Shown piece by piece: positions 24,612-35,011 of a DNA stretch of 64,000 nt. The DNA is from Styela clava (taxonomy: Eukaryota): assembly GCF_964204865.1 (NCBI RefSeq), contig NC_135258.1, positions 17,024,916-17,088,915 of the forward strand. Reading direction: 5' to 3'. The position numbers were made by a program, and so were the translations under genes. Position 1 is the stretch's first letter. Every line of letters starts with the position of its first letter. Below the pieces are notes generated by a model. That model was given only the letters and a program-made list of their open reading frames with translations. It was not told where the DNA came from and did not search any database.

Positions 24612-26300
24612 ATGCTTCAATTGAGGTGCTGTAATGATAGACACGAACCTATTCCATTACCAAATGGTGTTCCTGTCATACTAGGAAGAAGTCCACAAAC
24701 TAAAATCATTGAGAAAATTTGTTCAAGAAAGCAAGTTGAATTAACAGCAAACTATGAAAAAGAAAGCGTCACTTTGAAACATCTTGGAACTAACCCGTCT
24801 ATGATTGGTCAACAAGAGATTGCAAAAGGACACGAGAAGAAGTTAAAAGTTGGTGATATTTTCTATTTTGTTGTTCAACAATATCCACATGAAATTATTA
24901 AAACGCAAAAAACAACAGCTGAAAAACGAACAATCGACTCATATTTTGGGCCTAGTTCTTCAGAATCCAAAACGGAAACACCAATACCAAAAAAAGCCAA
25001 AATGGTAAATGAAGATGAGGTATCGGATGATCAGAGTGATGATGAAAATAAAGTTGCGGAAAAGCTCAAATTTTTACAAAGCAAAAGTCTATCCATTGTG
25101 AAAACAGAAAAATCAAAAGATGGTGGTAGAGAGAAAAATGTATTTAGAGGATGGATAAAATCTGACTATCCAGTTGGTTGGGAAGAAAAAGAAGGCTTAT
25201 TAATTTATCATTCTCCGCAGTTGTATAATTCATCAAAAATAGCAGCATTTGATATGGATGGTACAATAATAACAACAGCATCGGGTAGGACATTTGCAAA
25301 AGATCATAATGATTGGAAGATACTTTACGCCGAAGTACCAGGAAAATTGAAAAAGCTTCAAAATGACCAATATAAAATAGTGATAATAACCAACCAACTG
25401 GGGATTGGGAAAGGTAAACTTCAACCAAAGGATTTCAAAACCAAAGTCGAAAACATTTTGGGAAAGCTTGGTATTAAAGCTCAGGTGATAGCAATTACGA
25501 AAAAGGGTCCGTCTCGAAAACCTAACATTGGAACATGGACTTGGCTGGCAAAACAAGGTAATGGGGGAATACCGATTGATATGTCTCATAGTTATTATGT
25601 CGGAGATGCAGCTGGCCGCCCAAAAGATTGGGCTCCAAAAAAGAAAAAAGATTTTTCGTGTACTGATAGATTATTTGCTATGAATTTGGAAATTGATTTC
25701 AAAACTCCCGAGGAATATTTTCTTTCACAAAAGCCTGTTAAATTCAACATGCCTGAATTTGATCCAAAAAGTGTCATCGACAACAAAGTTTTAATAAAAA
25801 ACATGGATGAGCTGATCAGCAAAAAACAAGAAGTTGTGATCATGGTTGGGTATCCAGCCAGCGGAAAGTCTACCGTTTCTAAAGATTATTTGGAAGCAAA
25901 TGGATATACCCTCGTAAATCGAGACACAATGAAAACATGGCAAAAATGTGTGGCGGCATGTACACGTTTTCTCAGCGAAGGAAAAAGTGTGGTCGTGGAC
26001 AACACAAATGCAGACCCAGAGTCAAGAAAAAGGTATATAGATTGTGCTAAAGCAAGAGGCTGCGATTGCAGATGCTTTGCTATGCAAGTGACAATGGAAC
26101 ATGCAAGACATAATAATAAATTTCGAGAACTCTCAGGATCGGATCATGATAAAGTACCAGACATGGTATTTTATCAATATAGAAAAGCTTACAAAGAACC
26201 AAGCATGAAAGAGGGATTTTCAAGCATTGTAAAAGTAAACTTTGTTCCAAATTTTAAAAATGATGAATTGAAAAAACAATATTACATGTTTAATGATTAA
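24612..26300 (+). CDS. PNKP: bifunctional polynucleotide 5'-kinase/3'-phosphatase PNKP, single exon, 562 aa
   Basis: uninterrupted ORF; N-terminal FHA domain (VILGRSPQTKIIEKICSRKQVEL ~ recalled human PNKP [22 protein letters not shown]); HAD phosphatase motif FDMDGTIITT (DxDGT) and VGDAAGR; kinase Walker A GYPASGKST; C-terminal ARHNNKFRE ~ recalled ARHNNRFRE. Confidence 0.9.
   Translation: MLQLRCCNDRHEPIPLPNGVPVILGRSPQTKIIEKICSRKQVELTANYEKESVTLKHLGTNPSMIGQQEIAKGHEKKLKVGDIFYFVVQQYPHEIIKTQKTTAEKRTIDSYFGPSSSESKTETPIPKKAKMVNEDEVSDDQSDDENKVAEKLKFLQSKSLSIVKTEKSKDGGREKNVFRGWIKSDYPVGWEEKEGLLIYHSPQLYNSSKIAAFDMDGTIITTASGRTFAKDHNDWKILYAEVPGKLKKLQNDQYKIVIITNQLGIGKGKLQPKDFKTKVENILGKLGIKAQVIAITKKGPSRKPNIGTWTWLAKQGNGGIPIDMSHSYYVGDAAGRPKDWAPKKKKDFSCTDRLFAMNLEIDFKTPEEYFLSQKPVKFNMPEFDPKSVIDNKVLIKNMDELISKKQEVVIMVGYPASGKSTVSKDYLEANGYTLVNRDTMKTWQKCVAACTRFLSEGKSVVVDNTNADPESRKRYIDCAKARGCDCRCFAMQVTMEHARHNNKFRELSGSDHDKVPDMVFYQYRKAYKEPSMKEGFSSIVKVNFVPNFKNDELKKQYYMFND

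Positions 26301-35011: not shown

Follow-up and report, generated by a model that had tools for sequence, protein, structure and literature searches.

A tandem pair of intronless genes, PNKP and TEP1, in the ascidian Styela clava: a plausible tunicate operon

In the tunicate Ciona intestinalis about 20% of genes sit in operons, and single-exon genes are concentrated there: 38% of operon genes have a single exon, compared with 15% of genes elsewhere, and in 60% of operons the 5'-most gene is single-exon (PMC2760879). The upstream cistrons of Ciona operons lack AATAAA in 16 of 18 cases, as do those of Oikopleura (PMC1488885). Here we describe a locus in the ascidian Styela clava, contained in a stretch of 64,000 nucleotides (RefSeq assembly GCF_964204865.1, contig NC_135258.1, positions 17,024,916 to 17,088,915 of the forward strand; hereafter the window), where two neighbouring genes on the same strand, PNKP and TEP1, are each coded by a single open reading frame (ORF). 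Both genes have been annotated before and no new molecular function is implied. The same two genes, again intronless and on one strand, occur in a related sequence, L001, which comprises 17.7 kb (1-17691) of a 26-kb Logan contig from run SRR23343704. Set against the tunicate operons described to date, the Styela pair may plausibly be counted as a new, though unproven, case of operons rich in single-exon genes.

Two uninterrupted genes in tandem

PNKP occupies positions 24612-26300 of the window (562 amino acids) and TEP1 positions 26945-35011 (2688 amino acids), both on the + strand and each as one uninterrupted coding stretch. The genes lie head-to-tail, with exactly 644 nt (26301-26944) between the PNKP stop codon and the TEP1 ATG; the GC content of this spacer is 0.29, against 0.33 for the whole window. 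Both start codons are well defined, because an in-frame stop codon is found no more than 12 nt upstream of each ATG. The two translations are exact sequence matches to the S. clava RefSeq proteins XP_039262628.2 ('bifunctional polynucleotide phosphatase/kinase-like', 562 amino acids) and XP_039262627.2 ('telomerase protein component 1-like', 2688 amino acids), from which it follows that the RefSeq coding regions are likewise uninterrupted and that the window is ascidian DNA. An ORF of 2688 codons in DNA of 37% GC cannot have arisen by chance. The features of the locus are as follows.

24577-24590, + strand: acceptor-like site, a pyrimidine tract with AG at 24589-24590, 21 nt before the PNKP ATG; candidate for trans- or cis-splicing
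24612-26300, + strand: PNKP, single coding exon; FHA domain, 3'-phosphatase motif DxDGT (D214-T218), 5'-kinase P-loop (G413-K419)
26301-26944, + strand: AT-rich spacer of 644 nt; AATAAA and ATTAAA absent; variant hexamer AGTAAA at 26311, 26575 and 26595
26893-26907, + strand: acceptor-like site tttttgatttctcAG, AG at 26906-26907, 37 nt before the TEP1 ATG; candidate spliced leader (SL) trans-splice acceptor
26910-26924, + strand: upstream ORF (uORF) of four codons, ATG TTG AAT ATC TAG, shortly after the acceptor-like site at 26893-26907
26945-35011, + strand: TEP1, single coding exon; TROVE, DUF5920, DUF4062, STAND NTPase with APAF1_C, WD40 propellers
35203-35208, + strand: AATAAA, the first canonical one after the pair, 192 nt past the TEP1 stop codon; candidate 3'-end signal
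20183-22581, - strand: RPB9/POLR2I, intron-containing; coding blocks 22402-22581, 20926-21168 and 20183-20344

The upstream protein carries an FHA domain, a HAD-type PNK3P phosphatase and a P-loop kinase in the order required of PNKP (Pfam FHA_2 at residues 3-72, PNK3P at 209-370 and AAA_33 at 408-530), with the DxDGT and Walker A motifs intact. It matches crystal structures of the mouse PNKP catalytic domain with E=2e-116, and its FHA region matches the FHA structures of PNKP and aprataxin at about 1e-15. In an alignment of chordate PNKP from ten species, F213-D214-M-D216-G-T218 and G413...G418-K419 are invariant.

The downstream protein has TROVE, DUF4062, a STAND NTPase and a WD40 array with both TEP1-specific propellers, again in order. 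The TROVE match reaches 1e-103, DUF5920 and DUF4062 exceed their cut-offs, and the propellers score 163 bits (Beta-prop_TEP1_2nd, cut-off 89) and 92 bits (Beta-prop_TEP1_C, cut-off 32). In the NTPase region, matches to AAA_16, NB-ARC and NACHT all fall below cut-off and APAF1_C lies above it. The N-terminus, MVISTENKLL, aligns from residue 1 with that of the L001 orthologue, MVVTTENKIL. Residues 882-1091 (29588-30217), the DUF4062 domain, match 11gz_A, a chain of 220 residues deposited in the PDB as 'Telomerase protein component 1' (E=3.5e-35); since this chain has been solved, DUF4062 now has an experimental structure.

Judged by these sequence features, PNKP and TEP1 are ordinary, functional S. 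clava orthologues, the first of a DNA-repair enzyme that acts on DNA ends as 3'-phosphatase and 5'-kinase, the second of a component of vault and telomerase particles, and both are intact and conserved, which excludes pseudogene status. The domain sets and exact RefSeq matches bear out the identities that an earlier note on this stretch had read from the letters alone, and its description of two single-exon genes on one strand, separated by AT-rich DNA, agrees with the ORFs and the spacer given above.

Intron loss and conserved linkage

Exon structures were mapped by threading each annotated protein through its own locus. PNKP of the tunicate Clavelina lepadiformis has 14 coding exons (13 introns), and that of the seahorse (L008) has 17. 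Five of the 13 Clavelina introns fall in the same alignment column and phase as seahorse introns, at Styela residues 292 (phase 0), 386 (phase 0), 417 (phase 1), 438 (phase 0) and 474 (phase 2). These shared introns are ancestral to chordates, so PNKP of the tunicate ancestor bore introns and Styela has lost them all. For TEP1, where the comparison takes in L001 and non-tunicates, the crinoid gene has 45 coding exons across 27.8 kb, and the single 8-kb exon of Styela therefore reflects dozens of lost introns. The gene structures, as compared at the sequence level, show complete loss of coding introns from both genes within the tunicate lineage leading to Styela. Reverse-transcriptase-mediated loss is the likely route, in which introns would have been removed through recombination with reverse-transcribed spliced RNA.

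PNKP without introns is also found on four further contigs, three from the Logan assemblies of public sequencing runs (L001, L003 and L004; runs SRR23343704, SRR32906199 and SRR32906210) and one from TARA Oceans (L007). The Logan proteins are 62-63% identical to that of Styela in alignment, and with it they cluster at about 60% identity to one another, separate from Clavelina, Phallusia and Ciona; from this we infer that L001, L003 and L004 derive from stolidobranch ascidians. The first and last bases of L003 (1-19 and 2507-2532) are Nextera/Tn5 mosaic-end adapter (AGATGTGTATAAGAGACAG ... CTGTCTCTTAACACATCT), so the ends of that contig are library artefacts and not genomic.

The TARA Oceans sequence, a metagenome scaffold of 2013 bp, carries an intronless PNKP of 577 amino acids at 74-1807 that is closest to Ciona, Phallusia and Clavelina (50-52% identity), and may come from a pelagic tunicate. 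If so, loss of PNKP introns either was repeated in tunicates or predates the Styela-like clade. Amphioxus PNKP (L006, 1001-4038) retains just its two 5'-most introns, each within the FHA region and at a position shared with seahorse, and ends in an exon of 1722 nt. Such a 3' bias is classic for intron loss mediated by reverse transcriptase, and the event is independent of the loss in tunicates. PNKP thus seems prone to losing introns. Metagenome scans for further ascidian PNKP loci yielded only distant relatives, and there is no second S. clava PNKP among the 120 matches listed by a protein search.

Two protein searches returned no TEP1 from Ciona or Clavelina, a result whose recall is doubtful: a word-indexed search with the TEP1 core also missed the RefSeq protein of the query itself and the L001 orthologue. 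The family may be poorly recovered by such searches, or no TEP1 may be annotated in these tunicates. A PNKP-like and a TEP1-like gene occur on the same 276-Mb chromosome of Tachypleus; the PNKP model there spans 148 kb, no TEP1 gene is listed in the range returned around it, and we took the co-occurrence as coincidence.

L001 is read as genomic DNA because it holds six genes, on both strands, joined by non-coding spacers. In order along the contig they are:

first, - strand: ParA/NUBP-like gene, single ORF, 318 amino acids
second, - strand: ankyrin-repeat gene, single ORF, 180 amino acids
third, + strand: NDUFV3, single ORF, 92 amino acids, weak Pfam match
fourth, + strand: PNKP, single ORF
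fifth, + strand: PIKfyve-like gene, ORF of 2201 amino acids with FYVE, DEP, Cpn60_TCP1 and PIP5K domains
sixth, + strand: TEP1, called at 2636 amino acids and continuing past the stored locus

Of the six, PNKP and TEP1 alone are matched in the Styela window; all other neighbours differ. The presence of PNKP and TEP1 in this order on one strand in both sequences indicates that their linkage is older than the split between lineages whose PNKP proteins are about 60% identical. Conservation of the linkage is shown by sequence comparison with one related contig, L001. Of the relatives, whose gene structures the earlier note had proposed to compare, L001 has PNKP and TEP1 intronless and linked; the intron-bearing PNKP of Clavelina does not have TEP1 among its neighbours.

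The six L001 genes form two divergent same-strand runs about a spacer of approximately 900 bp, a layout suggestive either of two candidate operons set back to back or of a region poor in introns overall. The gap between NDUFV3 and PNKP is 536 nt and contains no canonical poly(A) hexamer; PNKP and the PIKfyve-like gene are 396 nt apart, and an ATTAAA there precedes an acceptor-like AG by about 75 nt. No relic of a PIKfyve gene was found between PNKP and TEP1 in Styela.

At about 16130-16142 of L001, an acceptor-like AG precedes TEP1 and is followed by a minimal uORF, ATG GTA TAA. In Styela and L001 alike, then, a tiny uORF begins within 2-3 nt of an acceptor-like AG upstream of TEP1, which may reflect a conserved feature of the leader or mere coincidence.

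Possible operon expression and its alternatives

The genes flanking the pair in Styela show only as short stop-free exon blocks, and the longest other ORF in the window has 179 amino acids, in keeping with the earlier note's description of an otherwise intron-rich region. RPB9, recognised by its Zn_ribbon_TFIIS domain and by the match of the joined peptide of its blocks to RPB9 structures (E=3e-53), is divergent from PNKP, with about 2.1 kb between its first coding exon and the PNKP ATG. On the + strand, a coiled-coil gene comprises at least 13 blocks over 866-14011, and an ankyrin-repeat gene on the - strand begins at 43.9 kb. Downstream of TEP1 the closest coding-like block is about 9 kb off and convergent. 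No other spacing in the window is nearly as tight as the 644-nt gap: the rest are 2.1, about 6 and about 9 kb.

Expression of the pair as an ascidian-type operon resolved by SL trans-splicing is, on comparison with known cases, a reading that we put at even strength. It is favoured because the host is a tunicate, the two genes adjoin on one strand, uninterrupted by any other, PNKP as the upstream member has a single exon, the spacing is the tightest in the window, the linkage is kept in L001 amid otherwise different neighbours, acceptor-like AGs are present, and the spacer lacks a canonical poly(A) hexamer (0 AATAAA or ATTAAA on the + strand of 26301-26944), while an AATAAA follows TEP1. In such an operon, transcription would begin upstream of PNKP, in the 2.1-kb region it has in common with the divergent RPB9, and would continue through the spacer into TEP1. 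The 3' end of the PNKP mRNA would form without a canonical AAUAAA, the TEP1 mRNA would be freed by SL trans-splicing just before its ATG, with the AG at 26906-26907 as candidate acceptor, and the unit would terminate at the AATAAA at 35203.

Several observations weigh against operon expression. Two of the supporting signals are weak, in that canonical poly(A) hexamers are absent from 6-18% of comparable 644-nt windows and the rule for acceptor-like sites matches 30% of random 90-nt windows. In Ciona-type operons fewer than 100 nt, and usually 0-1 nt, separate the mRNA ends (PMC2760879). The Styela spacer must accommodate both a 3' and a 5' untranslated region (UTR), and spacing of the Ciona type would here require a PNKP 3' UTR of about 600 nt. 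An AGTAAA lies 11 nt past the PNKP stop codon, at 26311, and could give a short PNKP 3' UTR that leaves about 550 nt for a TEP1 promoter. In L001 the gap between the PIKfyve-like gene and TEP1 is 1551 nt and contains one AATAAA, and TEP1 may have its own promoter there. For the fuhc pair of Botryllus, with a 227-bp gap and linking transcripts, read-through was preferred over an operon (PMC3691228). In the literature searched, neither SL trans-splicing nor operons are described for Styela.

In a search for relics of the Ciona SL (ATTCTATTTGAATAAG) with up to 3 mismatches, the window gave 6 matches against 4.1 expected, none of them before either ATG; in L001 a single match with 3 mismatches lies 190 nt ahead of PNKP and is not significant, being equalled in 101 of 200 shuffles.

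A rival reading is that of two independent transcription units, with a TEP1 promoter in the spacer, separate intron losses, and adjacency as leftover microsynteny in a compact genome. We consider this a serious possibility, if somewhat short of an even one. RefSeq models PNKP and TEP1 as separate genes; 644 nt fits a short 3' UTR ending at the early AGTAAA plus a compact ascidian promoter; and both the distance of L001 TEP1 from the gene before it (1.55 kb, with AATAAA between) and the Botryllus precedent of read-through point the same way. Outside operons, too, about 15% of Ciona genes have a single exon, and PNKP tends to lose introns on its own, with two left in amphioxus and none in the TARA scaffold. 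However, independent units do not readily account for a spacing so much tighter than elsewhere in the window, for a same-strand linkage kept between Styela and L001 though all other neighbours changed, or for a spacer without a canonical poly(A) hexamer, and a single-exon upstream gene fits the profile of Ciona operons.

A further proposal deals solely with how the intronless state arose and would hold under either mode of expression: introns were erased block-wise, a spliced but unresolved polycistronic RNA of PNKP, TEP1 and perhaps further genes having been reverse-transcribed and then fixed in one event by gene conversion or as a multi-gene retrocopy. This would explain why all introns are gone from both genes, at least about 13 from PNKP and about 44 from TEP1 by comparison with outgroups, and why four consecutive + strand genes and two adjacent - strand genes of L001 are all single ORFs. 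Spliced dicistronic RNAs that retain the intergenic spacer are known in Botryllus (PMC3691228), and why Ciona operons are so rich in single-exon genes has yet to be explained (PMC2760879). Against it, the borders show neither a poly(A) tract nor a target-site duplication nor an SL relic, though such marks would have decayed; the PIKfyve-like gene, present in L001 and absent from Styela, requires an extra rearrangement; and independent loss gene by gene accounts for the same data. We regard block-wise erasure at this locus as unlikely.

It is more doubtful still, to the point of being very improbable, that PNKP and TEP1 have been retained together as a functional module serving a common nucleic-acid-end or telomere/ribonucleoprotein pathway. 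In its favour, two species that diverged deeply have both kept the linkage, TEP1 bears the RNA-binding domain TROVE, and PNKP is an enzyme that heals ends; such a module would echo bacterial operons that pair a TROVE/Ro protein with RNA-repair enzymes. However, in L001 an unrelated gene, the PIKfyve-like lipid kinase, lies between the two, and in Clavelina PNKP is not adjacent to TEP1. TEP1 is mainly a vault-particle protein, and we know of no pathway that joins it to PNKP. Genes sharing an operon in Ciona are mostly unrelated in function, as Zeller reportedly found in 2010. The DNA-end and telomere theme under which the earlier note had placed the two genes is weakened by the same observations from L001 and Clavelina, and the pairing is probably incidental.

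Three elements resembling miniature inverted-repeat transposable elements (MITEs) occur in the window. Two sit between RPB9 and PNKP, an inverted repeat at 23165-23410 (87-nt arms, 80% complementarity) and a 684-bp unit at 23580-24263 with 18-nt termini starting GTTAACCCTTTC; the third, at 38217-38609, has nested arms of 49 and 57 nt. None of the three brackets the pair. A repeat search of 20-40 kb found no terminal inverted or direct repeats around the pair or around either gene, consistent with the earlier note, which had recognised no flanking terminal inverted repeats (TIRs) or long terminal repeats (LTRs). There are no other copies of the spacer within the window and no A-tract after either ORF, and searches with Rfam (at the gathering threshold and at E up to 1) and ARAGORN revealed nothing relevant in the way of a hidden vault, Y, SL or transfer RNA gene in or near the spacer.

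Joint delivery of the pair as transposon, virus or horizontal-transfer cargo, which intronless genes in an intron-containing neighbourhood and the MITE-like repeats nearby (23165-23410 and 23580-24263) might suggest, deserves almost no credence, given that no TIR or LTR brackets the genes, that the window has no transposase, integrase or reverse transcriptase ORF and the GC content of the pair is similar to the rest of it, that both proteins are ordinary orthologues closest to those of L001 (with named tunicates next closest for PNKP), and that L001 has the same arrangement amid other flanking genes. Among the earlier note's three explanations, acquisition on a mobile element can accordingly be set aside, and recent paired retroposition is not supported either, with neither poly(A) nor SL relics, no target-site duplication and no positive evidence in its favour. 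The operon-like unit resolved by SL trans-splicing fits best, with co-transcription inferred.

Comparison with described systems

Should RNA data confirm operon expression, the pair would document an operon among stolidobranch ascidians, and a third branch of the tunicates would then be known to use polycistronic expression of the kind seen in Ciona and Oikopleura. TEP1, with 8 kb of coding sequence and about 45 introns in outgroups, would also illustrate clearly how a very large gene can be left without a single intron, and the locus is a concrete one at which to ask why operon genes tend to be single-exon. On a wider scale, we think it conceivable, though improbable, that runs of intronless genes in ascidians are footprints of block-wise intron erasure via unresolved polycistronic RNA. 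The runs concerned may include PNKP-TEP1 in Styela and, in L001, NDUFV3-PNKP-PIKfyve-TEP1 together with the opposite ankyrin-NUBP pair. If true, this would provide a mechanism for the concentration of single-exon genes in tunicate operons, which was left open in the Ciona survey (PMC2760879), and would allow ancient operons to be recognised from DNA alone, by their intronless runs.

With processed retrogenes, and with genes that have undergone reverse-transcriptase-mediated intron loss, PNKP and TEP1 have in common that no introns remain where outgroups are intron-rich. They differ from processed retrogenes in lacking a poly(A) relic or target-site duplication, in being intact, and in a tandem order common to L001.

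Within the styelids, a parallel is the fuhc-sec/fuhc-tm pair of Botryllus schlosseri (Nydam et al. 2013, PMC3691228), which likewise consists of two same-strand genes, separated by a featureless spacer of 227 bp, and for which the choice between operon and read-through was left unresolved. Unlike the Styela genes, the fuhc genes have 17 and 15 exons; an SL was not found on the downstream fuhc mRNA.

The operons of Oikopleura dioica and of nematodes resemble the present proposal in that polycistronic transcription is resolved by SL trans-splicing. As in the Styela spacer, AATAAA is missing from the upstream cistrons of O. dioica, and some nematodes have intercistronic distances of several hundred nucleotides (in Trichuris the median is 517 bp), comparable to the 644 nt seen here. 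In contrast, the spacers of Oikopleura measure 23-60 nt and many nematodes use a dedicated SL2, and neither group of operons is noted for enrichment in single-exon genes, unlike those of Ciona.

The Styela locus resembles the SL-resolved operons of C. intestinalis (Satou et al. 2006, PMC1488885; Satou et al. 2008, PMC2760879). Those operons are defined by a distance of less than 100 nt, typically 0-1 nt, from the poly(A) site of the upstream gene to the trans-splice acceptor of the downstream one, whereas the Styela pair is known by its 644-nt distance from ORF to ORF. The likenesses lie in a tunicate host, a dicistronic layout on one strand, a single-exon upstream gene, an upstream cistron without AATAAA, functionally unrelated members, and an acceptor-like AG near the downstream ATG.

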